Assembly (NCBI GenBank): GCA_032249095.1
Contig: JAVVGN010000045.1
Span: 1 to 15,992 of the forward strand
DNA from: Candidatus Caldarchaeales archaeon
Lineage (GTDB): Archaea; Thermoproteota; Nitrososphaeria_A; Caldarchaeales; Calditenuaceae
Direction: 5' to 3'
Length of the DNA: 15,992 nucleotides
A model generated the notes under the pieces. The model made no database searches, was not told the DNA's origin, and saw nothing but the letters and a program-made list of their open reading frames with translations. Made by a program: the position numbers and the translations under genes. Positions 2,051-15,992 of this stretch are shown piece after piece; the stretch's first letter is position 1; each line of letters begins with the position of its first letter.

Positions 2051-2173
2051 GAGCCACTACACCGGGGATTGGGGCGGGCTCCCGAGACACACTGGACACC
2101 TCCGCCCCAAACATAGAGTGGGTGGATGGTTAAAAAATTCTCGTTGTATTGGGCGCGTCCAACTGTTACTTAG

Positions 2174-2607
2174 TGCTTTGCTTCTCTTCTATTTATGCTT
2201 TGTAGGTGGGATGTGAGGGCTTATGACGTTGGGCTCCTGATGGCTGGCTTGGATTATGTCTTGGACTTGATGGGCTTTGACTCTAGGTTTGTAAGGCTAG
2301 CTTGAGGTATGCTGAGAGCCTATCCCAGACACACCTAGGTGTCAGGATACCTAAGTCAACACTACGTTACTGGGAGGCTAGGCATGGGGACGTGGTTGGG
2401 GAGGTGTTGAAGGCGCTCCTAAGGCTGCTGAGCCTCATGGATTACGACTACTCGGTGGTAGACTCGACGAGGTTTACGGATTGGCTGAAGGGCCCTCATG
2501 AACTATTCATAGATGTTAGGGTTTTTGATGCTTGGGCCCTCGTTCGAGGCTTATTATACTGTAAGCCCAGTAGCGGCTGTTTACGTCGCATATCCAGGCC
2601 CTCGTGA
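2174..2607 (+). pseudogene. Truncated, frameshifted transposase relic (IS4/IS5-like DDE N-terminal part)
   Basis: One frame reads ...LDYVLDLMGFDSRFVRLA and stops at about 2299-2301. The next frame continues LRYAESLSQTHLGVRIPKSTLRYWEARHG...DYSVVDSTRFTDW, an HTH plus a first catalytic-Asp-like DSTxF block, then degenerates. There is no room for the remaining roughly 200 aa of a DDE domain before coxS. Confidence 0.4.
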
Positions 2608-2794
2608 CCCCCACGACTTTCCTCCTGACTATGAGCCCCTTTGGATGTATGTATAGGGTTAAGGCGTCGTGGGGCTGGTCCTCCTCCTCTACTGCCCGCG
2701 ATCCTATGAATACTTTGCTTTGTACCGATCGCTACACGTACATATACACCGCGCTAAAAATGTTGGGCGTTTGAGGCTCGTGCGTCTGCCCCGG

Positions 2795-3337
2795 CTATAG
2801 TGTTATGCTCTTCTCCTTCATCTCTTTTGCGGCCTGCTCGATGGATTTTATTATGTTTATGTAGCCTGTGCATCTGCAGAGGTTTCCCGAGATCCCCCAC
2901 TTTATCTCTTCACGGGTCGGGCTTGGATTCCGCATCAATAGGCCCAGCGCGGCCATTATCATGCCCGGTGTGCAGAAGCCGCACTGTAGGCCGTGGTTCT
3001 CCCAGAAGGCCCTCTGGAGCGGGTGTAGCTCCCCATTCTTAGCCAGACCCTCTATGGTCAGGACCTCCATGCCGTCTGCCTGCGCTGCGAGCATGGTGCA
3101 GGACTTGACCGCCCGCCACGTAGCCTCGCCCGGGCCCCTGATCAACACTGTGCACGCGCCGCAGTGGGAGGTGTCGCACCCGACGTGGGTTCCGGTCAGG
3201 CCTAGGATGCTCCTGAGGTAGTGTACTAGGAGGAGCCTCGGCTCAACGCTGTGGGTGTATTGGGCTCCGTTCACCTTCAGCGTTATCTGGACGGGGGAGG
3301 GTGATGGAGCCGCTCTAGGTGATGGGCGCCTAGGCAA
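2795..3337 (-). CDS. coxS: [2Fe-2S]-binding small subunit of an aerobic CO dehydrogenase / xanthine dehydrogenase family molybdenum hydroxylase
   Basis: Both Fe-S motifs are present: [12 protein letters not shown] (plant-ferredoxin type) and [10 protein letters not shown]...[12 protein letters not shown] start at 3337 with a Pro-rich extension of about 15 aa. The gene overlaps the upstream coxM-like gene by 8 nt. Confidence 0.9.
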
Positions 3338-4223
3338 CTGTCGCCACCTCCAGTGTTAATCCGGCCCGGCTCAACGCCTCCTCCAGGGCCCTCCTCACTA
3401 GGACCCTCGCCAGCCACTTCTTATATTCGGCGGAGCCCCTCAGGTCGCTGACCGGCTGAGCCGGCTCGGCCGCAACCTCCGCGGCCTTCTCGATCAGGTC
3501 GCGTGTAGGGGCCTTGCCTCTCAGCATCCTCTCAGCCCTGTCAGCCCTGTAGGGGGTTGGGCTGACCGCGCCCACCGCTATCGAGGCGGACTGAACGCTG
3601 CCTTTCTTCCCAGGCACGACGACCGCTGCCACGTTCACCGTGGCGAAGTCTCCCGCCTTCCTCTCGAACTTCTGCCAGGACCAGCCGTGACCAGGCCTCG
3701 GCTTAGGCACCACTATCTCTGTGACGACCTCGTAGGGCTTGAGGGCGGTGGTGAAGGGGCCCTTGAGGAAGCGCCTGATGGGTATGACCCTTCTGCCGGA
3801 GCCCTGAACGACGATGCTCGCGTCAAGCGCCAACAGAGCGACTGGCCAGTCGGCGGCCGGGTCGTTATGGGCTACGGAGCCTCCGATCGTCCCTAGGTTC
3901 CTGACCTGCATGTCTCCTATCCATCTAGCGGTCTCCGGGAGCAAGGGCACGGTGCTGCGCAACTCTTCGGAGAACTCAACCTCGCCATGGGTTGTGAGGG
4001 ACCCTATCCTTATCGTCCTGCCGGAGTCCTTAACGTAGGAAAGCATGCCCTTGAGGTTTTTCAAGTCGATAATTATCGAGGGGCTGAGGATCCGGAGCTT
4101 CATCATCGGTATGAGGCTCTGGCCCCCAGCCAGGACCTTGGCCTCATCCTTATGTTGCCTGAGAAGAGTAACGACCTCGCGCAGACTGCTCGGAGCATAG
4201 TAGCTGAACTTCCTTGGATACAA
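3330..4223 (-). CDS. coxM: FAD-binding medium subunit of a CO dehydrogenase / xanthine dehydrogenase family enzyme
   Basis: The N-terminus is (TTG)[16 protein letters not shown]...[16 protein letters not shown]. The [18 protein letters not shown] block is typical of CoxM/CutM FAD_binding_5 proteins. 297 aa. Confidence 0.9.
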
Positions 4224-4290
4224 GCGCTCCCTTCACCTGTGGCAAGACTCTTTAGATTCACGGTTCTTATATGTTTTATCTGGGGCTGCG
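4224..4290. promoter_or_regulatory. Divergent promoter region between the coxM-like gene and the methyltransferase gene
   Basis: Plus strand: cttatatgttttatc (4264-4280) lies 11-27 nt upstream of the TTG at 4291. Minus strand: aatctaaag (4247-4255) lies about 25-32 nt upstream of the TTG at 4223. Confidence 0.35.
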
Positions 4291-4905
4291 TTGGGTCGCG
4301 AGGGCTTGGGGGCGGGAGAGAGTGTTTATGAGGCGTCGGAGGATACTTGGTTGCTCGAGGTCTCGCTTCTGAAGCTCGATTGTAGCGGCCTCGCGATCGA
4401 TGTGGGATGTGGGGGCGGCGACATTGCACTCACTCTTCTCAAGCGGGGTGGCGAGGTGGTGGCGCTTGACATCTCGGAAGAGGCTGTGAGAGTTACGGCC
4501 AGAAGGTCCGCGCAGAACAGCTGGAGACTCCACGTCATGGTGTGCGACAGGCTAGCAGCCCTAAGGCCGACGGGCCGTATATCCGTCATAGCGTGTAACC
4601 CTCCGTATCTCCCATCGGAGGAGCCGGCCGACAGGGCGGTGGACGGCGGACCCTCAGGGGCAGAGTTCTCGCTCGAGCTGATCTCGCAGGCAAGGCCATT
4701 CCTAGATAGGGGGGCCCGCCTTGTCCTAATCACCTCCACCCTCGGCGGTGAAGACGCCATACTGGAGGCCTGTAAGAAGATAGGTCTCCGAACGGAGATG
4801 CTCGGCTCTAGGAGGCTCTTCTTCGAGGAGCTCCACTGCTACCTAGTCGTAGGGCGGGATACTGGGCCGGAGAGGTGGAGGCTTATAGCTCGGCGAGCCG
4901 CGTGA
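4291..4905 (+). CDS. SAM-dependent methyltransferase with an NPPY motif (HemK/PrmC/Mtq2-like protein glutamine-N5 methyltransferase family)
   Basis: VYEASEDTWLL near the N-terminus, the SAM motif I LAIDVGCGGGDIAL, an acidic residue after strand 2 (VVALDIS), and the catalytic IACNPPYLP. About 200 aa, as in archaeal Mtq2 homologues. TTG start. Confidence 0.75.
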   Translation: MGREGLGAGESVYEASEDTWLLEVSLLKLDCSGLAIDVGCGGGDIALTLLKRGGEVVALDISEEAVRVTARRSAQNSWRLHVMVCDRLAALRPTGRISVIACNPPYLPSEEPADRAVDGGPSGAEFSLELISQARPFLDRGARLVLITSTLGGEDAILEACKKIGLRTEMLGSRRLFFEELHCYLVVGRDTGPERWRLIARRAA

Positions 4906-6550
4906 TGACATCTCTATAGATGTCTTTGGAGGCCATGTCCTCTATCAGTAGAATGCCGTACTGGGAGGCTAGGAACTTCGCGTCTTCGCTAAGCTTCCGC
5001 ATTGATAGGAGGGCGACCCTCTCGAGTCTCAAGTCTGACTTGACGAATATGAGTCGTATTATGCTGTTGACGGACAGCCCCTCACCTAGGTCTTGGAGGA
5101 AAAAGACTGCGCGGTCAAGCTTACCCTCCCTCCCGAAGAGTAGGTCGATGCGGTGCGTCACCTTGGAGGCGCCCACGACCCTCGAGTTGACCCGCGCCTC
5201 GAACCCCCTTCTTCTCAGCTCCTCCGCGATTGTCCGCATGGGCTTGCTCCGCTCCTGTAAAGCGTTTATTACCTCGGGGTTTACTGTGTATCTGTAGAAG
5301 GTCCTGAACTCGAAGCTACTCATGTCGTAGTCTATGCCACATATTAGGCACCTGAAGGTGATGTTGGGGTCTAGGCTCACCTCGTTGCAGTCGAAGCACG
5401 TGAAGAAGGTTGAGTGGACCTTGAGGACCTCGGCCCCACCCTCCTCTAGGGGGCTCGCGGTTATCCTGACCTGGGAGCCACATCTCGGACAGATCGTTCT
5501 CTCACCCGCGACGAAGCTGGTCTCCGGGCCGAGGTATCCGCAGGCCTCGTGTTGCATGACCCTCTGCCTCCCAATATTTACCGAGCCGCACGCCTTGCAT
5601 CGCAGATTCATCGTGTGAAGCGCGCTCTGGCAGTGGGGGCAGACGATCTTCTTGAACTCTACCCCCGCGACCCGCACAACGTTCTTGTCCTGAAGCCTCC
5701 TGAGCAGCCGCATGACGATACCGGTCTCCACGCCGAGCCTCGACTCGATTGAGGGGAAAGACCCGCCCTCTGGGGAAGTGTTATTCGGGAGGGGGACGAT
5801 CTCGCTCAGCCCCTCATCAACAATAATGTCGAGAAGCATCTCCTCAAGCTCGTCTAGGCTGGGCGCTGGGGTGGCGCGTGCCGTGATATCTACGCCCTCC
5901 TCCTCACGTAATGCGCCGGTCTCCACGAGGGGCGGCCCAGGCACCTCCTCCTCAGGGGCCGCTGTCTCGGCAGGGCCGGACTCCGCTGTTTCGCCCGTAG
6001 ACTCCGCGCCGGCAACCTGTGGTGACGTGGCTGGGGCCTGGCTCGGCTGGGCGGTTGGCTGTGGAGCCTCCATGACGGTTCCGCCTGAGGGTGGGGGCGC
6101 GGTCGGAGTCGAGGGCTGCTGCATAGCGGCGGACTCCATCTGAGTCTGCGGCCTCGGGGCCCTTGCAGCGACTAGGTAGAGGATGGTCGGCTTGAGCCCG
6201 TACGCCACGCCAACCCCGGCCGTGATAGCTAGATAGGGGGCCAGGGGGAGAATAATCCCGGCGATGTCTGTCGCTGGAGGGGGTAGGATAATGAGCGCGA
6301 CGACCCAGCCGGCGGCCGAGCCTACGAGGAGTATGACCAGCTCGCGGGCGAGGCGCCACGATATAAGCCCGTTCAGGACTCCCAGCAGGAGCCCCGTCGA
6401 CAGGCTGGACAGGAGTCCCCGGACAGACGCCTCGACGGCGAGCGCCGCGTATATGATGGGTTGGAAGAACCCCCACCCCACAACCCAGAGGACAAACGAG
6501 ATGGCTAAGGCAAGCATCGTCCGGAGGATTAGGCCCGAGACTATGCTCAT
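4883..6550 (-). CDS. Polytopic membrane protein fused to a disordered P/A/T/Q-rich linker, a winged-helix-like segment, three zinc ribbons and a C-terminal alpha/beta (restriction-endonuclease-like?) domain; putative membrane-tethered regulator
   Basis: 555 aa. Residues 1-130 form 4-5 hydrophobic helices. Residues 131-225 are low complexity (APRPQTQ...PSTPTAPPPSGG...). Residues 262-300 read SFPSIESRLGVETGIVMRLLRRLQDKNVVRV. Cys pairs are C304xxC-x10-C318xxC, H334/C337...C354xxC, and C385xxC-x12-C401xxC. The tail is IAEELRRRGFEARV...THRIDLLF...AVFFLQD...LIFVKSD. Confidence 0.75.
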   Translation of the reverse strand: MSIVSGLILRTMLALAISFVLWVVGWGFFQPIIYAALAVEASVRGLLSSLSTGLLLGVLNGLISWRLARELVILLVGSAAGWVVALIILPPPATDIAGIILPLAPYLAITAGVGVAYGLKPTILYLVAARAPRPQTQMESAAMQQPSTPTAPPPSGGTVMEAPQPTAQPSQAPATSPQVAGAESTGETAESGPAETAAPEEEVPGPPLVETGALREEEGVDITARATPAPSLDELEEMLLDIIVDEGLSEIVPLPNNTSPEGGSFPSIESRLGVETGIVMRLLRRLQDKNVVRVAGVEFKKIVCPHCQSALHTMNLRCKACGSVNIGRQRVMQHEACGYLGPETSFVAGERTICPRCGSQVRITASPLEEGGAEVLKVHSTFFTCFDCNEVSLDPNITFRCLICGIDYDMSSFEFRTFYRYTVNPEVINALQERSKPMRTIAEELRRRGFEARVNSRVVGASKVTHRIDLLFGREGKLDRAVFFLQDLGEGLSVNSIIRLIFVKSDLRLERVALLSMRKLSEDAKFLASQYGILLIEDMASKDIYRDVITRLAEL

Positions 6551-6639
6551 GGTGCTAACGACACCGCTGACCGAGAATTACCAGTTCATGGTATATGAAT
6601 CTTTTGGGCGATGTTAAACAAGCGGTCTCCAGGGCGTGC

Positions 6640-7986
6640 TCACCCCCCACACTCTAGGGCCTGCATCTCGGTCGTCTGTATGGTCTCGATGGAGACGACG
6701 GGGACCACCACTGTGATGATCGTGATGGTTGAGGTCGTCACGTTGAGCGATCTGACGAGGGTTTCCCTCCTGAGGAGGCATACGTCTATGTAGCCCGTCG
6801 TTGTGAGGGAGGTCCTGGGGTCTGAGGTGTCTACTGTGAAGCTGCCGGGCACCTCGATGCTTCCCTCGGGGACGTGGAGCACGTACCTGTAATTCGTGGG
6901 CGGGCTGTAGGGTACCTCGCAGATGAAGACGGCTGATGCGCTATCACCCGGGTTAAGCCTCGATATGCGGACCTCTAGTGGGCTACTGCAAGTGAATCCC
7001 ACCGGATCAAGCCTCACGGTTGCGTTCAGCGTGGGGCCGGGCACGGCAGAGTCGTAGGCCAGTACGAAGGAGATGTTGACGAGGGCGGTGGGGGTGTTTG
7101 TCGTGTTGAAGATTATCAGCCTCGGCACCGGGTTAGTGATCCTCAGTATTAGGGGCCAAGAGTGCTGGGTGACGTTGAAGCGGAGCAGGACGTGGCTGTC
7201 TACCACGACGCTTCTTGCGTAGAGGGGAATGATTGCTGCCCAGCTCCCGTCGTTCCTCATCACCTCTGCCATGACGTTGTACCTCCCGGGAGCGACGTTG
7301 AAGACGAAGACCTCTTCCCTCCCGATCCTACCCGTGCTGGACCCTAGATCTCGAACCTCGACGTACCTCTTGACCCAGAGCTCGGCCCTGCAGAAGTCTA
7401 GGCTGCTCTCGGATGATGATGGGAGAACGCATCCGTCGCCCTCCGTAGCCACCCTGACGCGGTAGACGCTGGAGACGCTTAGGTTGGTCAGCGAGATCAT
7501 GAGGAGGTAGGGCAGCTTCTTTGGGCCTATCTCGTAGGGCGAGACAAAGGAGTTGCCCCTCGCGGTGGCGAGCCGCACCCTGATCAGCTCGTTCGGCTGG
7601 AGCTGATAGTTGAGCCTCACGACGCTCCTCTCACCCGGCGCGAGGATTATGGGTTGTTCCGAGGCCCTGAGGACTCCGTTGATCGTACTCTCGATATAGA
7701 TGGCTTGGACCGTGGTTTCTATCGGCGAGCTGTTCGTGATGTTGAGGACGGGCTGGTATTGGCCCGGCGAGTCGGCGGCGCTGCTCAGGGTGAGGGACAT
7801 GTCGAGCTTCTCCCTAAGCTTCTCAGCCTCAAAGATGAGGCGCCTGTTGACAGAGTCCATATACATTGTTTGGAGCTGCTGCATGTAGATCCACATAGGT
7901 ATCACTATCGTGAAAAAGACGAGTAGGCCGATGACTGTTCCCAGGACCGCGGAGACGCCTGCCCCCTTCCTACGAGTTCTCGCCAT
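6640..7986 (-). CDS. Large type IV pilin-like (class III signal peptide) surface protein, family B
   Basis: The N-terminus MARTRRKG/AGVSAVLGTVIGLLVFFTIVIPMWIYM has a basic leader, Gly, then a hydrophobic helix of about 22 aa. It is a clear paralogue of the 396-aa protein (AGVS...FFT..VP..YM; NxSP..I; ATARGNSFVS versus VTERGRLFAS). It has many N-x-S/T sequons. ATG start with gggggtga 9 nt upstream. Confidence 0.75.
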   Translation of the reverse strand: MARTRRKGAGVSAVLGTVIGLLVFFTIVIPMWIYMQQLQTMYMDSVNRRLIFEAEKLREKLDMSLTLSSAADSPGQYQPVLNITNSSPIETTVQAIYIESTINGVLRASEQPIILAPGERSVVRLNYQLQPNELIRVRLATARGNSFVSPYEIGPKKLPYLLMISLTNLSVSSVYRVRVATEGDGCVLPSSSESSLDFCRAELWVKRYVEVRDLGSSTGRIGREEVFVFNVAPGRYNVMAEVMRNDGSWAAIIPLYARSVVVDSHVLLRFNVTQHSWPLILRITNPVPRLIIFNTTNTPTALVNISFVLAYDSAVPGPTLNATVRLDPVGFTCSSPLEVRISRLNPGDSASAVFICEVPYSPPTNYRYVLHVPEGSIEVPGSFTVDTSDPRTSLTTTGYIDVCLLRRETLVRSLNVTTSTITIITVVVPVVSIETIQTTEMQALECGG

Positions 7987-7988
7987 GG

Positions 7989-8552
7989 CTAGTTGTCACC
8001 CCCTATTTTCGTGGTGGTTGTGGTAGTGGTTACCGTGTATGTTTGCGTTGTAGTGGTTATGACTGTTGTGGTGACGGTGGTGAGTCTGTATGTCCCGAGA
8101 GTCGTTGTTGATGTCGTGCTCACAGTTGTGGGCGTTGTTAGCGTCGTCACGGTTGTTACAGTCGTCGTCTGAGTCGTAGTCGTAGGTCCATAGACCGTGG
8201 TGGATCTCGTGGTTGTCGTAGTCAACACACGATACACAGTGACGGTTGTAGTCGCGGTGACACTATTTGTCAGGGTTCGGACAGTGGTGGTAGTTGTGGT
8301 GGTTATTGTTCTTATGACTCTGGTCGAGAGGGTGCTTATGGTTCTGGTCGTAGTCGTCGTCGTGGTGGTTGATGCCGTGGCCTCCCCCGATAGCACAGTC
8401 GTCGTCTCCGTCGTCGTTACATAGGTGGTTGTTGTTGTCGTTACGGTGGTGTATGTAGTCGAGGTTGATGTCCGCGTCCTAGAGCCCTGTGCCAAGACCT
8501 CTCCAACGTGTGCCGAGAAGCCGATCAATACGATGAGCGCCAAGACGGTCAC
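7989..8552 (-). CDS. Secreted hyper-threonine-rich protein (about 56% Thr after the signal peptide)
   Basis: The minus-strand ORF sits 2 nt before and 20 nt after its neighbouring genes. The hydrophobic N-terminus is MTVLALIVLIGFSAHVGEVLA/QGS. Then follow 163 aa made almost only of T, V, S, R, Y and I. The composition matches the in-frame Thr-rich tail of the upstream 605-aa gene, which supports this strand and frame. The start may lie further upstream (see findings). Confidence 0.65.
   Translation of the reverse strand: MTVLALIVLIGFSAHVGEVLAQGSRTRTSTSTTYTTVTTTTTTYVTTTETTTVLSGEATASTTTTTTTTRTISTLSTRVIRTITTTTTTTVRTLTNSVTATTTVTVYRVLTTTTTRSTTVYGPTTTTQTTTVTTVTTLTTPTTVSTTSTTTLGTYRLTTVTTTVITTTTQTYTVTTTTTTTKIGGDN
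7992..8480 (-). repeat. Low-complexity ACN-codon (Thr) coding tract 1
   Basis: The plus strand is almost entirely G/T-rich triplets (ggt, tgt, cgt, agt, gta, gac). No exact repeat unit is discernible by eye. Confidence 0.8.
7996..8003 (-). promoter_or_regulatory. Shine-Dalgarno-like site for the 448-aa gene
   Basis: The minus strand reads gggggtga, followed 9 nt later by the ATG at 7986. Confidence 0.5.
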
Positions 8553-8572
8553 GAGAGCCGCGGCATCCCTCC

Positions 8573-10390
8573 TCAGAGGGCCTTCACCTCCATCCTCCTC
8601 GCTAGGCGCCAGAGCAGCGGCGCCAGACCAGCCGAGGCGGCGACTGCCCCGCCCATAGCCATCAGGGCCTCGTAGCCGCTATTAACCGTTCCAGCCCCCA
8701 CCGGAAGGACCGGTACTGCCCCTCCGGCCCTGCTTATGGTAGTGGTGGTCGTGGTGGTTGTGGTCACGGTGGTCCGCGCGGTGGAGGTGCTTGTGGCAGT
8801 AGATGTCACCGTGTAGGTGGCGGTGTAGGAGGTGGTGGTTTGGGTTATGGTCGTGGTGGCGGTGGGGGAGTAGAGGGTGCTGGTCTGGGTTGTGCTTGAG
8901 GCTGTCCTGACGGTGGAGGTGGTGGTGTAGCTGGTCGAAGTTCGTGCTAGGGTGACCCACTGCGTTGATGTGTAGCTGGTGAACGTGGCCATCCTGGTTG
9001 TCACGGTCGTTGTGGTGGTAGTGCTTGATGTACTTGTCGAGATAGTGGTTCTGGTTGATGTTGTGGTTGTGGTAGACGTGTATACGGTCCGCGTAGTAGT
9101 TGTCGTTGTCGTGCTGGTCAGCGTTCTAGTGGTGCTCGGCACCGTTGTGGACGTGGTTTTCGTGGTCGTCGCCGTAGCTGTCGCCGTCACGGTTGTCGTA
9201 AGAGTAACCCAAACAACCTCGACATCCGTTACGTCTACATACTCTATGCTGACCTCGTAGAGGTTCAGTATCGAGGTTGGTGGGTTCAGGTGGTAGGTCC
9301 CCTGGGAGACTTGGTACATCACTCCCTGGGGATCAAAGTCCAAGAGGAGCCGCCCACCAGTGGTATAGCTGCTGACGCAGTCCCGTATCGCTAGCGTGAC
9401 TTGGACGGTGGCCTGGTCCGTCGAATAGGCAGAGACTAGGAAGCTGTTGGCAAGCCTATTCAGAAGATCTACATTGAGCTTAGCATAATCAGGGAAGATA
9501 ACGTCTCCCGCCACATCAAAGCGCCATATCTGGGGGAGGATGGTGTAGTCATCGGAGGTGATTGACACGGTCATGGGGTACCGGAGCGTCTGCCCCGATA
9601 GGGGGACGCGGATCTCCATCGGCGGCTCGCCCGACACGTGGATCGCTCCGCCCGCTAGGTTTCCACCCCCATCCAGAATCTTTACATCGATGTTTGTGTC
9701 TAGCACTCGGTCGCTCGCCATCAGCAACCTCAGCTTAACCTCATTGTTCACCACGAAAACTAGCTCCCCGTTCTCCAGCGCCGCCGATTCCACTGGATCA
9801 ACAAGCTCCACGAAGATCCAGCTGCTTGGCGGGGGGCAGGACTCGCTTAACCCCGCGCGGGGCGTAGCTGCCTCGAAGGACGAGACCTTGAAGAGCTCCG
9901 TCCTTAGGAGGGCCTCGATGGATCCCGGATCGCCAGGCCTTATGAGGGCTGTTGGTAGATAGTGCGCGGTAACCAGGATGGGGTCGCCCCTGCGGCATCC
10001 GGGGCATCTGAAGGAGACCTCCGCGACCTCTGCAACATTCAGCGTGACAAAGCGGGACGGGTCGAGGCCGCTATCGTAGGCGAGCGAGCCATTCCGATAA
10101 ACTATTATGCGGAAGATAGTGATCCTCTCGTATCCTACGTTTCTAAACCTTGCCACCCCGTATCCAGCCTCCTCAGGGATCCTCCAGTCGGGGAAGTACA
10201 CGTAGTCAGCCCCCAGCATCGACCTGAGGACGAGGCTATCCTTGTTGAGGCTCTGGACAGCCTCCTGCCTCCCGATAGACGAGTAGGAGGAGAGGAGTCC
10301 GAGCATGCCAAGCCCTATTGCGACGACCACAGAGAGCGTCATCGCTGTAGAGACAACGTCTGAGTCGCCCCTACGCGGCCCACGCCTCAA
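8573..10390 (-). CDS. Large type IV pilin-like (class III signal) protein, family A, with a C-terminal Thr-rich stalk and a C-terminal hydrophobic anchor
   Basis: The N-terminus is (TTG)RRGPRRG/DSDVVSTAMTLSVVVAIGLGMLGLL. The N-domain shares FRNVGYERITIFRIIVY...CPGCRRGDPILVTAHYLPTALIRPGDP with the 172- and 400-aa proteins. Residues 396-552 are about 56% Thr. The C-terminus is YEALMAMGGAVAASAGLAPLLWRLARRMEVKAL. The TTG start overlaps the upstream stop as TTGA, with gaggtga 7 nt upstream. Confidence 0.75.
   Translation of the reverse strand: MRRGPRRGDSDVVSTAMTLSVVVAIGLGMLGLLSSYSSIGRQEAVQSLNKDSLVLRSMLGADYVYFPDWRIPEEAGYGVARFRNVGYERITIFRIIVYRNGSLAYDSGLDPSRFVTLNVAEVAEVSFRCPGCRRGDPILVTAHYLPTALIRPGDPGSIEALLRTELFKVSSFEAATPRAGLSESCPPPSSWIFVELVDPVESAALENGELVFVVNNEVKLRLLMASDRVLDTNIDVKILDGGGNLAGGAIHVSGEPPMEIRVPLSGQTLRYPMTVSITSDDYTILPQIWRFDVAGDVIFPDYAKLNVDLLNRLANSFLVSAYSTDQATVQVTLAIRDCVSSYTTGGRLLLDFDPQGVMYQVSQGTYHLNPPTSILNLYEVSIEYVDVTDVEVVWVTLTTTVTATATATTTKTTSTTVPSTTRTLTSTTTTTTTRTVYTSTTTTTSTRTTISTSTSSTTTTTTVTTRMATFTSYTSTQWVTLARTSTSYTTTSTVRTASSTTQTSTLYSPTATTTITQTTTSYTATYTVTSTATSTSTARTTVTTTTTTTTTISRAGGAVPVLPVGAGTVNSGYEALMAMGGAVAASAGLAPLLWRLARRMEVKAL
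8584..8591 (-). promoter_or_regulatory. Strong Shine-Dalgarno-like site inside the 3-prime end of the 605-aa gene
   Basis: The minus strand reads ggaggtga. Exactly 7 nt downstream is a CTG (8576-8574) in the frame of the Thr-rich ORF, overlapping the TGA stop as CTGA. Confidence 0.4.
8606..8674 (-). other. C-terminal hydrophobic segment followed by a basic cluster (membrane anchor or sorting-signal-like)
   Basis: ALMAMGGAVAASAGLAPLLW is followed by RLARRMEVKAL. It is preceded by AGGAVPVLPVGAG immediately after the Thr-rich stalk. Confidence 0.5.
8735..9205 (-). repeat. Low-complexity ACN-codon (Thr/Ser) coding tract 2, the stalk of the 605-aa protein
   Basis: Residues 396-552 contain about 88 Thr of 157 by hand count. 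It shares the 14-mer gtggtggttgtggt (8751-8764) with tract 1 (8021-8034). Confidence 0.8.
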
Positions 10391-11589
10391 GAAAGTGTCA
10401 CCTCAACGTGATAGATGTCGGTGATGTCGAGGGGCGCGGGCAGGTCGAGATACGTGGTATCCCACTGTACGCCGGCCGGGAGTGAGACGGTTCTCGACAT
10501 GTCGGCAAGAAGGTTTCCCGCGCAGTCTCTCAGAACTAAGTTAAGCCGGAATGTTACGGGCTCGTCCTGTTTCCCTATCTCGACCTGAATGGTCGTCACG
10601 ACGGGGTTGTCGCTGATGTAGGAGATGTACTGGGTGATGAGGCCGATACCGGAGACGTGGGCGCTGCGGTCTGGCAGCGCGCCAAACTTGAAGTGGCTCG
10701 GTATGGGTATGTAGGAGGACCCCACTACCGATAAGTCGAAGGGAGTGCCTATACCGATGACGCCCCCGACGAACTGCTCATATGTTACGCCAACCCTGAG
10801 GTCCGCAGTCAAAGTTTGGGAGGAGTCCTGGTCAGCGAGCTGGAACTCGAACTGTTGTGTGCTTAGCGTTAGGGGTCTTGCATAGCTTATGAGGACTGAG
10901 AAGCGGTTGTTCGGCGGGTTTGAAAAGGAGCCGGTCAGGAAGTTCGTCACGGGGTCAACAGATGTAAAGGCGGCCCACCTAGCCCCCTCCGGCAGGGCGC
11001 AGGGGCTGCCGATCCTCGTTCCGGGATAAATTATAAGCGTCTCGACATACCGCATCTCGTCCGCCGACAGCTCGGGGTTTGCGTTGTCGTACAGCGCCCT
11101 AGCTATGTACCAGATCCTTATTCTGGTTCTCTCCCCGAAGAAGCAGGAGCTGCATGTTGGCAGCTCAGAACTCGTGAACTCGGCCTTCTCCTGGGGCGAG
11201 ATGGGGTCGAGCCCGCCTGATCCACAGGCGACCCACCTAGCTGGGGGGCTGGGCCACGCGCCGCCTAGCGAGCCGTCCTGCCTTATGAGCTCTATTCGGG
11301 TCACACACAGGTCTAGGGGGGAGATGTTTCTGAGCACAATAAGCCTCAGGTCCTCCCTGGAGGTGTAGCGGACCAGCTCGAAGGCCAGGAGACCGGAGGT
11401 CCTTACTAGGGCGATGCCCTTGTCCGTCTTTTGCGTCGTGTCCGTCGCATTGATGGCGAACCAGCTCGTGGCGAGGGATATGAGGATCAGCCCAACGGCT
11501 AGGGTGATTGCGGCCAAAATGACTGAGGATAGGACTGGAGAGACGCCGCGGGTCCCGTTGCCGGTTGTACGGCGCCTGCTAGACTTCAA
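10387..11589 (-). CDS. Type IV pilin-like (class III signal) protein, family A
   Basis: The N-terminus is (TTG)KSSRRRTTGNGTRG/VSPVLSSVILAAITLAVGLILISL, the canonical archaeal pilin RG/VSPV...ILxAIT motif. The N-domain LRLIVLRNISPLDLCVTRIELI...CSSCFFGERTRIRIWYIARALYDNANP is paralogous to the 172- and 605-aa proteins. No ATG or GTG is available upstream in frame. Confidence 0.8.
   Translation of the reverse strand: MKSSRRRTTGNGTRGVSPVLSSVILAAITLAVGLILISLATSWFAINATDTTQKTDKGIALVRTSGLLAFELVRYTSREDLRLIVLRNISPLDLCVTRIELIRQDGSLGGAWPSPPARWVACGSGGLDPISPQEKAEFTSSELPTCSSCFFGERTRIRIWYIARALYDNANPELSADEMRYVETLIIYPGTRIGSPCALPEGARWAAFTSVDPVTNFLTGSFSNPPNNRFSVLISYARPLTLSTQQFEFQLADQDSSQTLTADLRVGVTYEQFVGGVIGIGTPFDLSVVGSSYIPIPSHFKFGALPDRSAHVSGIGLITQYISYISDNPVVTTIQVEIGKQDEPVTFRLNLVLRDCAGNLLADMSRTVSLPAGVQWDTTYLDLPAPLDITDIYHVEVTLS
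10398..10404 (-). promoter_or_regulatory. Shine-Dalgarno-like site for the 605-aa gene
   Basis: The minus strand reads gaggtga, followed 7 nt later by the TTG at 10390. Confidence 0.5.
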
Positions 11590-11624
11590 TTCTCGCCCAC
11601 ACGCTGGGCATGGGATATTGTTCC

Positions 11625-11637
11625 CCCTATATATGTG
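11625..11637 (-). promoter_or_regulatory. Internal promoter candidate (TATA box) for the 400-aa gene and downstream genes
   Basis: The minus strand reads cacatatataggg in the only sizeable gap of the cluster (166 nt, 11590-11755). It lies about 36-48 nt upstream of the TTG at 11589. A 6-bp perfect inverted repeat, aatcag-n5-ctgatt (11669-11685), lies about 40 nt further upstream. Confidence 0.4.
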
Positions 11638-11755
11638 CGATAGGTCGCGTAGGGTGCCGGATTTGTCAATCAGTCTGGCTGATTAGCCGGATGTGCAATG
11701 ACCGCTGTAGGCGTTTCGGCGGCCTGGAAAAGGTTGGCCATTGCCGGGGCGTTCG

Positions 11756-12946
11756 TTACCCCCGCCTCTGCGGCCTGACGGTTATAGATGTGGAGTCGCT
11801 GTCCGAGGGGTATGCCAGGCCGGATTCCTGGCCGGTCCCTGCGCTTGAGAGGGCGGGGATTGTGATGGTTATCGAGCCGGGGTTATTGCTCCTGAGGTCT
11901 GCGGCGTTTAGGTTGCAGCGGAGCGCTATTGTTGTTGAGCCCGGTGTCAAGGTATCTCCCAGTTGTATGCAGATGAGCGTTCCTGACTCGTAGTCTCCGG
12001 ATAGAGTGATTGAGTTCTGTATGGCCGCATGGTTTATTCCGACGCCCTCGCCGGCCTGTGCGGGGAGTGAGAGTGTTATGTCGAAGCTGAATGACTCGCC
12101 CTCGAGGACCCTTGAGGGCGCAATGATTTCTAGGTCGATGGTTTGCGGGGTTATCTCTGTCCTCGAGAGTATGAATACGACGTTCCAGTAGTCGGGTAGG
12201 GTTACCTCGGCGGGATTTGTGCTTGGCGCGATGAGTCTCCCCGGGCCTATTAGCCCTCCGTTCTCTAGGAGGTAGACATGGAATGTTCCTGCTGTCGCTC
12301 CGAAGGATAGAGATATGTTTTCGTTGCTCGCGGTGGCCTTATACGTGATGGATCGTGGCTGTATGTCGGCGTCCCCTTGTGGGGATATGAGGATTGTGTA
12401 CTGGTTTCCCCTCTTCATGTTGATTATGGAGACCGTGAGGGTGTAGGGGTAGAGGCCTGATGCGAGCCTGCCCCCGATGATGAGTACTGGTGTGGAGGCG
12501 AAGAGCCTTCCCCTCTCCGTGACCGCTATGAACTGGGCCCTCCCCGTAAAGTTTGTGAGGCATTGGTCTACGCGGACCGATGTGTTCCAGCCCGGCGAGA
12601 CGTCTATCGGCGTCTGGATGCATGGGTCGCCGCCTATCGGTGCCGCCTCCTCGACATCCATGGCCCAGATCCTCTGGACCCTGATCATTAGTGGTGATGT
12701 GTTTTTGAGCACCAGCCTTATCTGGTTGCTCGTGGATGGGAATGGTATTATTGTCCCCTCAATCGCGATCTCGAGGCTCTCCGTGGCTCGGTCTATGTCT
12801 CTTATCCTCCTGTAGTTGAGCTCGTTGGAGTAGAGGTTGTATAGGGTTGACATGTATAGGTAGAGTGGGACTAGCGTTGTGAAGAATATGGCTATCGCTA
12901 TCGCCACCCCGACCATCGTGGAGACTCCTGCCCTATCTCGCCTCAT
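11756..12946 (-). CDS. Large type IV pilin-like (class III signal) surface protein, family B
   Basis: The N-terminus is MRRDRA/GVSTMVGVAIAIAIFFTTLVPLYLYM. It is paralogous to the 448-aa protein. The ATG at 12946 overlaps the upstream gene by 14 nt. Confidence 0.75.
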   Translation of the reverse strand: MRRDRAGVSTMVGVAIAIAIFFTTLVPLYLYMSTLYNLYSNELNYRRIRDIDRATESLEIAIEGTIIPFPSTSNQIRLVLKNTSPLMIRVQRIWAMDVEEAAPIGGDPCIQTPIDVSPGWNTSVRVDQCLTNFTGRAQFIAVTERGRLFASTPVLIIGGRLASGLYPYTLTVSIINMKRGNQYTILISPQGDADIQPRSITYKATASNENISLSFGATAGTFHVYLLENGGLIGPGRLIAPSTNPAEVTLPDYWNVVFILSRTEITPQTIDLEIIAPSRVLEGESFSFDITLSLPAQAGEGVGINHAAIQNSITLSGDYESGTLICIQLGDTLTPGSTTIALRCNLNAADLRSNNPGSITITIPALSSAGTGQESGLAYPSDSDSTSITVRPQRRG

Positions 12947-13451
12947 ACCTAGCTACCTGGGCTGACATTACGTTTCTCGCTGGGTCTGCACTGCTGTATA
13001 GGTGCGCGGGCATGTACCAGAGCTCGACTATGTATGGCGGCTCTCCCGGATATCTCTCGCATCCCTGTATGGTTTCGAACCTGTCTGGGGAGGCGGCGAC
13101 TATGGTTGGCTGGATGTTGTACCTTATGCCTGGTGAGGGCCGTGATTTAGGGTAGATTGTGCAGCTGATGACTATTACGTCGTTCATCCCGGGGTTGGAG
13201 ACCCAGACGGCGTTGGTCTGGAGCGAGGCCGCCTCGACTACTAGGAGGATTCTGTGCTGGGAGATCATCCTGTCGTATTCTCTCGATATCTGTGTTCCCT
13301 GGCTCGAGACGTAGCCGAGGGAGAGCGCCCAGAGGGCCACGCCCAGTGTGACGACGCCCGCGAAGAGGAGGATCTCGCCTAGGAGTATTGTGTCGCCTCT
13401 TTTGTTTCGGGGCTGGCGCCTCCTACACATGGGGTTGATTGTCGCGTCCAT
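12933..13451 (-). CDS. Type IV pilin-like (class III signal) protein, family A, stand-alone N-module (pilin-sized)
   Basis: The N-terminus is MDATINPMCRRRQPRNKRG/DTILLGEILLFAGVVTLGVALWAL. It then has AVWVSNPGMNDVIVISCTIY...GCERYPGEPPYIVELWYMPAHLYSSADP, matching the N-domains of the 400- and 605-aa proteins. It is the first gene of the block. Confidence 0.75.
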   Translation of the reverse strand: MDATINPMCRRRQPRNKRGDTILLGEILLFAGVVTLGVALWALSLGYVSSQGTQISREYDRMISQHRILLVVEAASLQTNAVWVSNPGMNDVIVISCTIYPKSRPSPGIRYNIQPTIVAASPDRFETIQGCERYPGEPPYIVELWYMPAHLYSSADPARNVMSAQVARYEAR

Positions 13452-13477
13452 TTACTGATTGTCAGTTTTGGTGGGTC

Positions 13478-13490
13478 TGATATAAGTTTT
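13478..13490 (-). promoter_or_regulatory. TATA-box candidate for the pilin-like operon
   Basis: The minus strand reads aaaacttatatca, about 27-39 nt upstream of the ATG at 13451, in the 59-nt gap after the GT-C gene. Confidence 0.5.
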
Positions 13491-13510
13491 CTGAGGTGTT
13501 TGCCGGCTCT

Positions 13511-14938
13511 TTATAAATGGTTTTTAAATAGTGGTAGTTTTGTGATTAACAGTTTGTTTGGTCGGCCTTGTTTGGTCGAGAGTTGGGGCTGGGGGGCGTT
13601 TGTGTCTCTGCGGTAGAGGTATTCTGCGAGTATTACGATGGCTGCTGTTAGGGCCGCTGTGAATATTATCATTGCTGCACCCTCGAGGAGCCACTGGCCC
13701 TGAGAGTAGTTGTATATGAGTGTGAAGATGAAGTCCCAGTATGGGAAGCCTAGGTTCATTACGACTGCGAGGGGGGCGAGGGCCGCGGTGGCCACTATGG
13801 GGTGGAATGCGAGGCGTGTGGGGCGGGGTTCGTCGCTGTTGGGTCTAAAGGCTATCTGGGCCGCCAGCATGGCTAGAAAGGGGCCGACTGGGTAGAAGTA
13901 GTAGGGGTAGAACTGGCGTGCGAGGACGCCCTGCAGCATCCCGGACCAGTTGGCGGTCCAGTAGTTTCTCGGCAGCAGGAGCATGGTTAGGACTGAGGCG
14001 GAGGCGGCTACCGCGAGGTTTGCGGGTATGTGGAGCCTTCCCTGGAGCGCTCTGTAGAGGATTACCGCCAGCGTGACGAGGGGTGTTATGAAGGGTAGCG
14101 TGTTCCAGAATACTTGACCCATCCCGAGGTATGAAAGGATGTACCACGGAAGTGATTGGGGGACTCCGATGACGAAGGGGCCAACTATTGGTGATAATGG
14201 AATATTGTTAAAGGTCAGGTGACCCTCGACGGTTGTCTTGATTGTCTGTTGTATCCAAAGCCAAGGATTCAGAGATAATGAGATAATTGGCGGGAACATG
14301 TATAAGGCTAGGCGTTTAGGATTAAGCTGATGATGTAACAATAAAAAGAGTGCGAGGACTATGATGAGGATTAGAAACGTCAATTTGGTGAGAACCGCCA
14401 TAGATGCGAACACCGCAGCCAATATAAGATCTCTCCGCCTTTTACTTCTGTACAAACAATATACGCTTGTTACTGCAAATAACGTACCTATTGAGTCGAG
14501 GTATGCTGTAGAATATTGTATTAGGAAGGGGTCAAGTGCTGTGAGAGATGCCGCAACTAATGCTGCTTTATGAGAACGTTTTTTGACAAGCATGTATGTG
14601 GGGATTGTAGTCAGACTGGAGGCTAAAATGGGTGCTAAAAGTCCTGCCTGAGCGTGACCAATAATGGGACCTATTGTGCTGGCTGTCAATCCGGTAAGTA
14701 TCATGCCCAGCGGTGGAACGCCTGTGTTTATTCCTGCCAGCGCTGTGATGTTGAGTGCTTTGATATTTTCGATGTATTGTATTCCGAAAACTGTATAAGT
14801 GTCTACATCGAATATGATTAGAGATGAAGCTCCCCACCCCGGGTATATCCACGTACTGTAGCGTAGAGTGAATCCAAATGTGGTTACGAGCAACAGGGCA
14901 ATTAAGTATCTCTTCGAAAACCATCTGTGCCTACACAT
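13511..14938 (-). CDS. GT-C fold glycosyltransferase, PMT/ArnT-like (GT39/GT83-type, PMT_2-like) polytopic membrane protein
   Basis: 475 aa with about 11-13 hydrophobic helices. An acidic loop motif (IIFDVDTY) follows TM1. The block KAALVAASLTALDPFLIQYSTAYLDSIGTLFAVTSVYCLY...AAVFASMAVLTKLTFLI fits the conserved PMT_2/ArnT core pattern. ATG start with a TATA-like caaataaatac about 30 nt upstream. Confidence 0.7.
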   Translation of the reverse strand: MCRHRWFSKRYLIALLLVTTFGFTLRYSTWIYPGWGASSLIIFDVDTYTVFGIQYIENIKALNITALAGINTGVPPLGMILTGLTASTIGPIIGHAQAGLLAPILASSLTTIPTYMLVKKRSHKAALVAASLTALDPFLIQYSTAYLDSIGTLFAVTSVYCLYRSKRRRDLILAAVFASMAVLTKLTFLILIIVLALFLLLHHQLNPKRLALYMFPPIISLSLNPWLWIQQTIKTTVEGHLTFNNIPLSPIVGPFVIGVPQSLPWYILSYLGMGQVFWNTLPFITPLVTLAVILYRALQGRLHIPANLAVAASASVLTMLLLPRNYWTANWSGMLQGVLARQFYPYYFYPVGPFLAMLAAQIAFRPNSDEPRPTRLAFHPIVATAALAPLAVVMNLGFPYWDFIFTLIYNYSQGQWLLEGAAMIIFTAALTAAIVILAEYLYRRDTNAPQPQLSTKQGRPNKLLITKLPLFKNHL

Positions 14939-15034
14939 CTTTCAGTATCCAAACATATTTCCCCTGTATTTATTTGGTATAGATAATGAGTGTGTACAGC
15001 TTATAACAGTTATAATCTTCTTTGTGCATTCTTG
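14939..15034. promoter_or_regulatory. AT-rich divergent promoter region (GT-C gene leftward, DMT gene rightward)
   Basis: gtatttattt (14967-14976; minus strand aaataaatac) lies about 30 nt from the ATG at 14938. agttataatc (15008-15017) lies about 20-35 nt upstream of the ATGs at 15035 and 15047. Confidence 0.45.
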
Positions 15035-15397
15035 ATGCTGGTCTTGATGCCTTGGCTTCTCGGAATAGTCGTTGTGTTATTAGTAGGTCTGAATACGTTG
15101 TTCTGGGGGTTTGCCCTTAAAGAGGTGGGTGATCCGGAGTTTAATCTTGGATTTATGCTAGAGTTAGTCTTCAATAGATGGTTCATGTTGGCTATGGTAA
15201 GCGGTTTTGCTGTAGCTGTCTTGAGTTACTGGGTGTATAGTGCTTTAGGTGTAATGCTTGGGAGGTTCTTCCTCTCCATATCTATTGTGTCTGTTTTAAT
15301 CGTGGGTGTGTTTGTTCTCGGTGAAAAAATAAGCATAGAGCAATGGATAGGAGTGGTGCTAGTAACTATAGGGGTACTACTGATAGGTAGAGTATAG
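15035..15397 (+). CDS. Small four-TM DMT/EamA-type membrane protein (ArnE/ArnF-like candidate lipid-linked sugar flippase subunit)
   Basis: About 120 aa with four hydrophobic helices. The C-terminal VLGEKISIEQWIGVVLVTIGVLLI is the typical EamA/SMR-like terminal helix motif. The ORF track opens at GTG 14990, but the ATG at 15035 (or 15047) fits the promoter better. Confidence 0.6.
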   Translation: MLVLMPWLLGIVVVLLVGLNTLFWGFALKEVGDPEFNLGFMLELVFNRWFMLAMVSGFAVAVLSYWVYSALGVMLGRFFLSISIVSVLIVGVFVLGEKISIEQWIGVVLVTIGVLLIGRV

Positions 15398-15405
15398 ATT
15401 TCCTG

Positions 15406-15930
15406 CTACAGCTCCCAGACACAGGTTGTCCTAGGATTCTTACAAACTACTTCCTCAACTATCTTTGCCTTTCCTAAAACTTCTTCAATCATTTTTAGCG
15501 CTATTTCTCTCTTTTTATGCCCTTTGTCGTGAAACTGGACTATAATCGTTCTGACCCCAAGTGACGGCAGTAGCATAATCTCCTCTAGGACGGCGTGTTC
15601 GCATCCCTCACAGTTCAGTTTAACTACTTCCGGCCTGTACTCCTTTACTAGCTGTTGCAAACTATATGTTGGGACATCAAGCAGCAAATCACCTTTAGGG
15701 GCTCTCAAGCCATACGTATCGAGCCCAACCGATTGGGGAATCCACGGGACTGGTTCACCGACTGAGGCAAGTAGAGTAATCACGAGGAGATTTTTGCAGT
15801 TTTCGACAAGCACTTCATAGTGTTCCTTTACAGGCTCAACCGCGATAACCCTCTTGGCGCCCTTAAAAAGCCATAGTAGCACTGTGTCTCCTATGTATGC
15901 CCCTACATCAAGCACAGTCTTCCTGTCCAC
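15406..15930 (-). CDS. FkbM-family SAM-dependent methyltransferase
   Basis: It has LDVGAYIGDT (SAM glycine-rich motif), VIAVEPV, and VVKLNCEGCEHAVL, the counterpart of the FkbM iKiDiEGaE block. GTG start with cttaaatag 25 nt upstream. 174 aa is short for the family. Confidence 0.7.
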   Translation of the reverse strand: MDRKTVLDVGAYIGDTVLLWLFKGAKRVIAVEPVKEHYEVLVENCKNLLVITLLASVGEPVPWIPQSVGLDTYGLRAPKGDLLLDVPTYSLQQLVKEYRPEVVKLNCEGCEHAVLEEIMLLPSLGVRTIIVQFHDKGHKKREIALKMIEEVLGKAKIVEEVVCKNPRTTCVWEL

Positions 15931-15954
15931 ATTTACATCGAGCTCGTCTCCAAA

Positions 15955-15963
15955 CTATTTAAG
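15955..15963 (-). promoter_or_regulatory. TATA-box candidate for the FkbM-like gene
   Basis: The minus strand reads cttaaatag, ending 25 nt upstream of the GTG at 15930, consistent with a leaderless transcript. Confidence 0.45.
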
Positions 15964-15992
15964 CTTCTTCTGAGCATGGTGTATTATGGAGT

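Follow-up and report, generated by a model that had tools for sequence, protein, structure and literature searches.

Type IV filaments are thought to work through subunits that carry a single membrane helix and are pulled from the bilayer by the assembly machinery. The described archaeal type IV pilins (8fk7, and UpsA/UpsB and AapA/B of Sulfolobus) consist of a short basic leader ending in glycine, a hydrophobic helix, and an immunoglobulin (Ig)-like beta-sandwich, and their loci encode a PilB-like ATPase, a PilC-like platform, and several pilin-like proteins; Ser/Thr-rich, heavily glycosylated pilins occur in the Sulfolobales. In a 15,992-nucleotide (nt) stretch of DNA (the window: contig JAVVGN010000045.1 of assembly GCA_032249095.1) from an uncultured hot-spring member of the Calditenuaceae, which are thermophilic Aigarchaeota now placed under Nitrososphaerota, we analyzed a 605-amino-acid (aa) protein that shares these traits and appears to add a second membrane anchor at its C terminus. 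Its open reading frame (ORF), reported at 8573-10390 in an earlier note on this DNA, is borne out and lies on the minus strand (8573..10390). With slightly better than even confidence, we regard the protein as a minor-pilin-like component of a type IV filament system that is anchored in the membrane at both ends and would serve as a leash or an anchor.

Relative to archaeal type IV pilins, the 605-aa protein is approximately four times larger and has a second beta-sandwich, a 157-residue Thr-rich tract, and a C-terminal helix with a basic tail. Large proteins that are not fiber subunits but have a pilin-type N terminus are known from the Sulfolobus bindosome (GlcS, AraS, and TreS), whose sugar-binding proteins rely on class III signal peptides and type IV filament machinery for surface placement (PMC3387779; bioRxiv 10.64898/2026.04.22.720090). 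The 605-aa protein differs from these in having neither a solute-binding domain nor an adjoining ABC transporter, and bindosome proteins lack a C-terminal anchor. A Ser/Thr-rich stretch or stalk directly before a C-terminal helix, as in our protein, is present in crenarchaeal oligopeptide-binding proteins and in SlaB, but these OppA-type proteins and SlaB have signal peptides cut by signal peptidase I and unrelated extracellular domains. The haloarchaeal S-layer glycoprotein (PGF-CTERM, ArtA) also combines a Thr-rich region, which is O-glycosylated in the haloarchaeal protein, with a hydrophobic segment and C-terminal basic residues; our protein, by contrast, comes from a different phylum, has a pilin-type N terminus, and shows neither PGF or any conserved motif at the helix nor a match to the corresponding hidden Markov models (HMMs).

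Two further groups of proteins resemble the 605-aa protein in other respects. The "S-layer-like" proteins of the Thermoproteales (arCOG05471) are large, contain cysteines, end in a C-terminal helix, and lie within type IV pilus loci of the TACK archaea, where they adjoin large putative minor pilins or adhesins (Makarova et al. 2016, PMC4858521), but they are set apart by their description as signal-peptide proteins rather than pilin paralogs. The likeness is one of concept in PamR of the "Pam" pilus of CPR bacteria, in FimI/PapH, and in the basal pilins of sortase pili, all of which have a polymerization element at one end and cell attachment at the other. PamR, with tandem FnIII domains and a C-terminal membrane helix, has been proposed to stop growth and anchor the fiber (bioRxiv 10.64898/2026.03.03.709456). 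Assembly in these systems, by donor-strand exchange or sortase, is unrelated, so that the resemblance is an analogy and not a homology. Our literature search for pilins with a C-terminal membrane helix returned none, only the analogous PamR, and we found no description of a pilin that joins such a Thr tract to an anchor of this kind. The protein is built of known parts, namely, a class III N terminus, Ig-like domains, and a TACK-style Ser/Thr linker plus helix.

The N terminus reads MRRGPRRG/DSDVVSTAMTLSVVVAIGLGMLGLL, where here and below the slash marks the predicted cleavage site. It comprises a putative class III leader, MRRGPRRG (residues 1 to 8; 10367..10390, minus strand), with a predicted prepilin-peptidase site after G8, followed by a hydrophobic H-domain that continues into a long alpha-helix (residues 9 to 56; 10223..10366, minus strand). 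Around the site, the residues are R7-G8/D9-S10-D11-V-V-S-T-A-M-T-L-S-V-V-V-A-I-G, and the H-domain extends over 20 or more residues, with a 19-residue Kyte-Doolittle mean that peaks at 2.13 and an approximate insertion free energy (dG) of -0.2 kcal/mol. Substrates of archaeal prepilin peptidases have Gly, Ala, or Ser at position -1, a charged residue at -2, and the site ahead of the hydrophobic domain, whereas positions +1 and +3 are lax (PMC4371748), and the 605-aa protein has each of the three defining elements. Among 34 homologs, G8, S10, V13, and S14 are invariant, and position -2 is Arg or Lys in most members of the close family and Glu or His in a few (P0043 and P0045). In an alignment of the wider superfamily, the site coincides with TRG/VSPVLS of the neighboring 400-aa protein, and in distant members the same position reads KKG/LTVIEV, RRA/LTIVET, or RKA/FTTVEV, which is the classical motif with Glu at +5. 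A signal peptidase I-type N terminus does not fit, in that the basic-Gly site precedes the H-domain and no A-x-A-type site comes after it. From these alignments, the N terminus appears to be homologous to class III signals, and cleavage after G8 is predicted.

The homology to a pilin-like neighbor extends well beyond the signal. Residues 7 to 382 of the 605-aa protein align end to end with residues 14 to 397 of the 400-aa protein (21% identity, E = 9e-5), and short-form paralogs of this kind stop exactly at the end of the second globular domain; as judged by this alignment, the 605-aa protein is therefore the 400-aa paralog plus a C-terminal extension made up of the Thr tract and the anchor. 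The 400-aa gene (10387..11589, minus strand), whose product has the N terminus TRG/VSPVLSSVILAAITLAV and lacks both the Thr tract and the anchor, lies immediately upstream. The long form starts at a TTG codon, about 8 nt downstream of a GAGGTG sequence, and this codon overlaps the stop of the 400-aa gene (TTGA), so that the two genes share 4 nt in the window; in related loci they adjoin.

An AlphaFold2 (AF2) model built from a 32-sequence alignment consists of a helix (residues 8 to 56) followed by two beta-sandwiches and has a mean predicted local distance difference test (pLDDT) score of 86. The first beta-sandwich (residues 59 to 175; 9866..10216, minus strand) holds a conserved CxxC (C129 and C132), and the second (residues 191 to 386; 9233..9820, minus strand) holds C338, with C185 in the linker just before it. 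Scores range from 75 to 90 in the helix, from 83 to 93 in domain 1 up to about residue 150 and from 62 to 71 over residues 151 to 175, and from 83 to 97 in domain 2. In a Foldseek search with the full-length model, which was swamped by the unstructured Thr tract and gave one useful match, the helix and domain 1 matched the Pyrobaculum calidifontis type IV pilin 8fk7_A with a probability of 1.00 and a TM score of 0.64 on our protein; a profile search against Protein Data Bank (PDB) sequences returned nothing significant. The predicted fold could be that of an archaeal pilin with one additional domain, although it is not diagnostic of one. C129, C132, C185, and C338 are invariant or nearly so across the superfamily of short and long forms, as are N84, D198-P199, P272, and W289, and the four cysteines are probably engaged in disulfides or in a metal site of the extracellular domains. 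When the whole protein was scanned against Pfam and NCBIfam, no family matched; the family is unannotated and without a Pfam model.

Neither a T2SSE ATPase gene nor a T2SSF platform gene is present in the window. In strain L013, however, whose sequence is 99% identical, genes for a T2SSE ATPase, a T2SSF platform, and a 136-aa pilin lie directly upstream of the same genes, and the row there runs ATPase, platform, 136-aa pilin, GT39-like protein, 172-, 396-, 400-, and 605-aa genes, Thr-rich ORF, 448-aa gene, and TackOD1 gene. The 136-aa pilin has the N terminus RNAG/ISPVVATVILVAV and matches PF07790 with an E value of 9.8e-4, under the gathering score. An ATPase and a platform accompany the same core in other Calditenuis-type metagenome-assembled genomes (MAGs; L004, L005, and L006) as well. 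Because ATPase, platform, and pilin adjoin the same genes in L013, and the same core recurs in these MAGs, the 605-aa protein belongs to a genuine type IV filament locus of the Calditenuaceae. The class III-type N terminus, the adjoining paralog with a canonical motif, the filament locus, and the helix-plus-beta-sandwich model together uphold the earlier note's identification of a pilin-like protein with a prepilin-type N terminus. A pilus system of Calditenuis, which may or may not be the one encoded here, is reported to be very highly transcribed in hot-spring streamers (PMC4681859).

Searches with the globular part recovered 47 clusters, comprising 46 full-length proteins (591 to 611 aa, 43 to 82% identity) and one 348-aa fragment, all from metagenomes or MAGs. 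An exhaustive profile search of 1.84 billion representative proteins returned only 46 clusters, which fall into two forms: short (365 to 400 aa) and long (541 to 640 aa). A scan of species-representative genomes mapped the family to Candidatus Calditenuis and the Calditenuaceae, and also to a single uncultured archaeon that is less closely related. In each of the long forms examined, there is a Thr tract of 150 to 226 aa (46 to 55% Thr), followed by a tail of 26 to 47 aa with a hydrophobic segment of 17 to 22 residues and a basic end, which in distant long forms reads RRWRR, RRWKSG, RRCRR, RGSG, KRWSGK, or similar, and this architecture is kept down to about 27% identity. Gene order is the same everywhere it was inspected (the window, L004, L010, and L012), namely, short form, long form, Thr-rich secreted protein, and a pilin-like protein of about 430 to 450 aa; L011 is a short contig in which the fourth gene of the row is cut by the contig end. 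Since layout and gene order recur throughout the family, comparison of its members indicates that the C-terminal extension of the long form is old and under selection.

The Thr-rich tract (residues 396 to 552; 8735..9205, minus strand) contains 88 Thr and 22 Ser in 157 residues (56% Thr, 70% Ser plus Thr), exactly the Thr count of the earlier note, and ends 22 residues ahead of the C-terminal hydrophobic segment. In the 34 close homologs, its length is 154 to 160 aa, with gaps in 10 of the 163 alignment columns, and it has a period-2 Thr pattern, two conserved Pro, scarcely any Gly, Asp, or Glu, and 16 to 25% Val, Ile, Tyr, Phe, or Trp. Its similarity to the L004 ortholog exceeds that of composition-matched shuffles (z = 10.5). 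At the DNA level, all four Thr codons are used, without a strong tandem repeat, which rules out repeat expansion or slippage as the origin of the tract; these properties, together with the fixed length, mark the tract as a selected feature. Such a conservation pattern is not that of a mucin-type linker evolving freely and suggests instead a spacer whose length is defined and which is possibly beta-structured; hairpins drawn by AF2 within the tract have a pLDDT of about 27 and carry no weight.

The tract is probably O-glycosylated, forms a beta-rich stalk, or both. The locus encodes a 475-aa multi-pass membrane protein (13511..14938, minus strand) of the PMT_2/GT39/ArnT-like (GT-C) family, as assigned by Pfam matches at the level of the family: 10 of 26 members match PF13231 (PMT_2; best E = 1.3e-12), and the source annotations of some read glycosyltransferase family 39 or ArnT-like, while the window copy has no Pfam match. 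This protein is a candidate O-glycosyltransferase for the Thr tracts, and a GT2 gene also occurs in related loci. O-glycosylation of the tract can reasonably be inferred because a PMT_2-family gene lies in the locus and the 605-aa protein has a single N-glycosylation sequon.

Beyond the tract, a linker, ISRAGGAVPVLPVGAGTVNSGYE (residues 553 to 574; 8669..8734, minus strand), leads to the Gly/Ala/Ser-rich hydrophobic segment ALMAMGGAVAASAGLAPLLW (residues 575 to 594; 8609..8668, minus strand), a predicted second membrane helix, and to the basic and presumably cytoplasmic tail RLARRMEVKAL (residues 595 to 605; 8576..8608, minus strand). Judged by hydropathy scales, the segment has a Kyte-Doolittle mean of 1.69, within a family range of 1.65 to 2.14, and approximate dG values across the family lie between -0.5 and +3.5 kcal/mol. 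In the tail, all 34 homologs have R598 and R599, and the pattern RR..V is kept in the close family. A hydrophobic helix followed by a basic C-terminal cluster is present in all long forms and is common also to ordinary stop-transfer anchors. The hydrophobic segment and basic end that the earlier note described are therefore present, but the motif that it placed at the helix, within AGGAVPVLPVGAG (residues 555 to 567), in fact lies 7 residues away from it, since the note omitted TVNSGYE (residues 568 to 574).

On our preferred reading, that of a doubly anchored minor-pilin-like subunit, the precursor would enter the membrane in a Sec-dependent manner, with its two termini left in the cytoplasm and some 540 residues exposed on the outside, a topology suggested by the positive charges that flank the hydrophobic segments at both ends. 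Prepilin peptidase would remove the 8-residue basic leader after Gly8, and the N-terminal helix would be drawn into the filament core together with neighboring pilin-like proteins. The C-terminal stop-transfer helix and its basic cytoplasmic tail, which the 400-aa paralog lacks, would be retained, joined to the globular domains by the tract with its fixed length of about 157 residues. The PMT_2/GT39-like enzyme encoded in the locus probably O-glycosylates this tract, or the tract forms a beta-rich stalk, or both. Such a subunit may act as a leash, restricting the distance that a tip or priming complex is able to move across the envelope; alternatively, it may be the last subunit to be added, stopping growth and anchoring the base of the filament. 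We estimate that 157 residues would span roughly 40 to 55 nm if extended.

Several findings weigh against this reading. Acidic residues at +1 and +3 (D-S-D) are unusual, position -2 is Ser, Thr, Tyr, or His in some distant long forms, such that cleavage may not be universal, and pilin HMMs (PF07790 Pilin_N, UpsA/UpsB) give no match at E <= 10 to the protein, either whole or as its first 60 residues (its neighbors have weak N-terminal matches, to UpsA at E = 0.014 for the 400-aa protein and to UpsB at E = 0.0015 for the 448-aa protein). The E value of the 8fk7_A match is weak (0.023), and with a truncated, better model the top Foldseek matches are generic tandem Ig/FN3/macroglobulin-type domains. 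At the other end, the C-terminal segment of the window protein is marginally hydrophobic (approximate dG, about +3.4 kcal/mol), and AF2 places a helix at residues 573 to 603 with low confidence; this helix may pack against another helix. Finally, a base terminator has no obvious need for a 157-residue spacer.

In an alternative that we consider possible but distinctly less probable, the N-terminal helix is an uncleaved signal anchor. The protein would then be a two-helix hairpin in the membrane with a large outside loop, serving as a stator, an envelope strut, an adhesin, or an S-layer-like part of the pilus machinery. There is precedent for such a state, in that ArlF/ArlG-type proteins resemble archaellins yet are unprocessed. 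Besides the acidic +1 and +3 residues, the uncharged -2 position of several distant long forms, and the failure of pilin HMMs to match the N terminus, the presence of two anchors argues against release into a growing fiber, tandem Ig/FN3-like domains typify envelope and adhesion proteins, and large "S-layer-like" proteins with a single C-terminal helix are regular members of Thermoproteales type IV pilus loci (PMC4858521). Against a plain anchor stands the homology of this N terminus, over its full length, to the RG/VSPVLS neighbor and to the [GA]/[LF]T..E relatives. A plain anchor would need neither the invariant Gly at -1 nor the Arg or Lys that mostly occupies -2 (Glu or His in P0043 and P0045), and the overlap or adjacency of the long- and short-form genes is as expected of partners in one complex.

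The earlier note interpreted the tail as an archaeosortase or PGF-CTERM-type sorting signal. On that interpretation, the protein would lose its tail by cleavage and be transferred to a lipid or another envelope component, and the mature product would be an ordinary secreted or lipid-anchored glycoprotein or pilin. We judge this improbable. The general layout is suggestive, in that all long forms have a Gly/Pro-containing stretch, a hydrophobic segment, and an Arg cluster, several members show a loose G-G...P-[ILV]-[LI] pattern before the helix, a helix of such marginal hydrophobicity could serve as a transient anchor, and a glycosylated Thr-rich region ahead of the signal recalls haloarchaeal S-layer glycoproteins (PMC3387779). 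The CTERM sorting models of NCBIfam (PGF-, PEF-, PEFG-, VPXXXP-, and PEP-), however, gave no archaeal match to the whole protein (E <= 1) or to ten isolated tails (E <= 10), the sole stray match being to PEP-CTERM in one of the ten tails (E = 0.27). In sortase-type signals the motif is the conserved element, whereas here the residues before the helix vary across the family (PVLPVGAG, PPGTTAGS, DPIIAAP, SPILQ, NPILG, PVLPVGAGTVNSGYE, PPGTTAGSWTFADPS, DPIIAAPDEALPDTR, SPILQPGDWPIHWK, and others), as does their spacing, and only the hydrophobicity of the tail and the Arg cluster are general. The cytoplasmic tail is conserved beyond charge alone in the close family. No other family with this tail emerged: a tail-profile search of 5.8 billion proteins, whose sensitivity was poor enough that known members were missed too, gave only a 64-aa fragment of the same protein, and none of the neighboring window proteins has a tail of this type. 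Likewise, no exosortase or archaeosortase domain was found among the genes called in related loci, and a literature search on archaeosortase in Aigarchaeota found nothing.

A retained helix has closer precedents than a sorting signal. In crenarchaea, binding proteins are described as having a Ser/Thr stretch that is glycosylated and a C-terminal helix that is retained, the S-layers of Sulfolobales are anchored through a stalk and a C-terminal helix, and both archaeosortases and their substrates are reported to be absent (PMC3387779). Because a Ser/Thr stretch plus helix is the standard retained anchor in these organisms, the earlier note's first option for a protein with two functional ends, tethering at both, by analogy fits better than its second, processing at both.

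Directly 3' of the 605-aa gene is an ORF for a Thr-rich secreted protein of 187 aa (7989..8552, minus strand), which consists of a signal peptide and about 164 aa that are mostly Thr and ends in GGDN. Counterparts lie directly downstream of the long form in every locus examined (L004, 11815-12396; L010, 11917-12630; L011, 2735-3259; L012, 5863-6480), and similarity to the L004 ortholog goes beyond composition (z = 10.8 over shuffles). Public gene calls for the strain of the window and for L004 to L006 miss this ORF and instead report Val-rich antisense ORFs of 48 to 77 aa. The ORF probably encodes a genuine secreted protein belonging to the pilus module that has been overlooked. Paralogy between this protein and the Thr tract was ruled out, since their similarity is not above that expected from composition (z = 0.7 and 2.9). 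The length of the tract and that of the mature Thr-rich protein vary together (157/164, 155/162, 226/205, 181/169, and 162/146 in the window, L004, L010, L011, and L012; r = 0.91), a correlation based on five loci with rough boundaries, and the two could pair along their length, for which this co-variation is only suggestive.

Long antisense ORFs are also present opposite the 605-aa gene and the Thr-rich gene (9558-9962, 9962-10363, and 7993-8658, all on the plus strand). Those opposite Thr tracts are Val-rich because the Thr codons, ACN, read NGT on the other strand; such ORFs are mechanical by-products that can mislead gene callers.

The remaining pilin-like genes of the window encode proteins of 448 aa (6640..7986, minus strand; RKG/AGVSAVLGTVIGLLVFF), 396 aa (11756..12946, minus strand; RAG/VSTMVGVAIAIAIFF), and 172 aa (12933..13451, minus strand; KRG/DTILLGEILLFAGVV), and the 448-aa gene is kept in all related loci. 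The 396- and 448-aa proteins are paralogs (E = 1e-18). The five pilin-like genes thus make up two paralog pairs (448/396 and 605/400) and a 172-aa member, and the locus has therefore grown by duplication.

Next to the 448-aa gene is a gene for a 555-aa membrane protein with a TackOD1 zinc-ribbon domain (4883..6550, minus strand; PF18551, E = 2.4e-24), which has N-terminal membrane helices, a Pro/Ala/Thr-rich low-complexity linker, and several zinc ribbons. This protein or a paralog stands beside the pilus locus in L004 (two copies), L007 to L010, and L013, and it may be a regulator or cytoplasmic adaptor of the filament system. The flanking region on this side is unrelated to the pilus module (586-975, plus; 1202-2050, minus; 2795-4223, minus; 4291-4905, plus) and encodes a PIN-domain protein, a UbiA-family prenyltransferase, the [2Fe-2S] and FAD-binding subunits of a molybdopterin dehydrogenase, whose large subunit is not encoded in the window, and a small-domain methyltransferase, the 3' end of whose gene overlaps the TackOD1 gene by 23 nt. 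No tRNA genes or Rfam matches were found in the window.

The window and L013 are 99% identical over positions 1943-14182 and diverge thereafter, with the breakpoint within the N-terminal third of the GT39-like gene. Past this point (14183-15992), G+C content falls to 0.42-0.45, and genes for an EamA-like protein (14990-15397, plus strand) and an FkbM-type methyltransferase (15406-15930, minus strand) replace the pilin, platform, and ATPase region of L013. This segment is a glycosylation island that varies between strains or, alternatively, the result of chimeric assembly of the metagenome. Although the window seems to switch strain variants at about 14182 and public callers mis-handle the neighboring Thr-rich ORF, it is scarcely credible that the Thr tract and tail of the 605-aa protein are themselves artifacts of a wrong frame or strand or of low-complexity assembly error, since a single uninterrupted ORF spans the globular domains and the tract, the identical protein is found on three public contigs from independent assemblies (including GCA_032249815.1), and the architecture persists in relatives down to about 27% identity, with position-by-position conservation of the tract (z = 10.5).

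A more specific version of our preferred reading, which we offer tentatively and consider rather unlikely as it stands, is that the long form is a built-in leash or ruler, with its pilin helix in the fiber or priming complex, its C-terminal helix in the membrane, and its tract setting the permitted travel. The tract may in that case pair with the Thr-rich secreted protein as a glycosylated, beta-rich stalk. The tract, if extended, would be long enough to cross a pseudo-periplasm and an S-layer. If this reading were true, type IV filaments would be limited or anchored by a novel means, and pilins with two anchors would form a new class.

Priming, stopping, and retention of archaeal pili in an envelope that consists solely of a membrane and an S-layer are poorly understood. 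A conserved paralog that has a second anchor on a spacer of fixed length suggests a way in which archaeal filaments might be limited, terminated, or anchored; alternatively, it may hold adhesive domains at a defined distance from the membrane for display. In this locus, a pilus system is also linked with a PMT-like O-glycosyltransferase and with a Thr-rich secreted protein that had been overlooked, and its pair of short and long paralogs, which differ by the Thr tract and the anchor, constitutes a natural experiment on the priming, stopping, and holding of pili.

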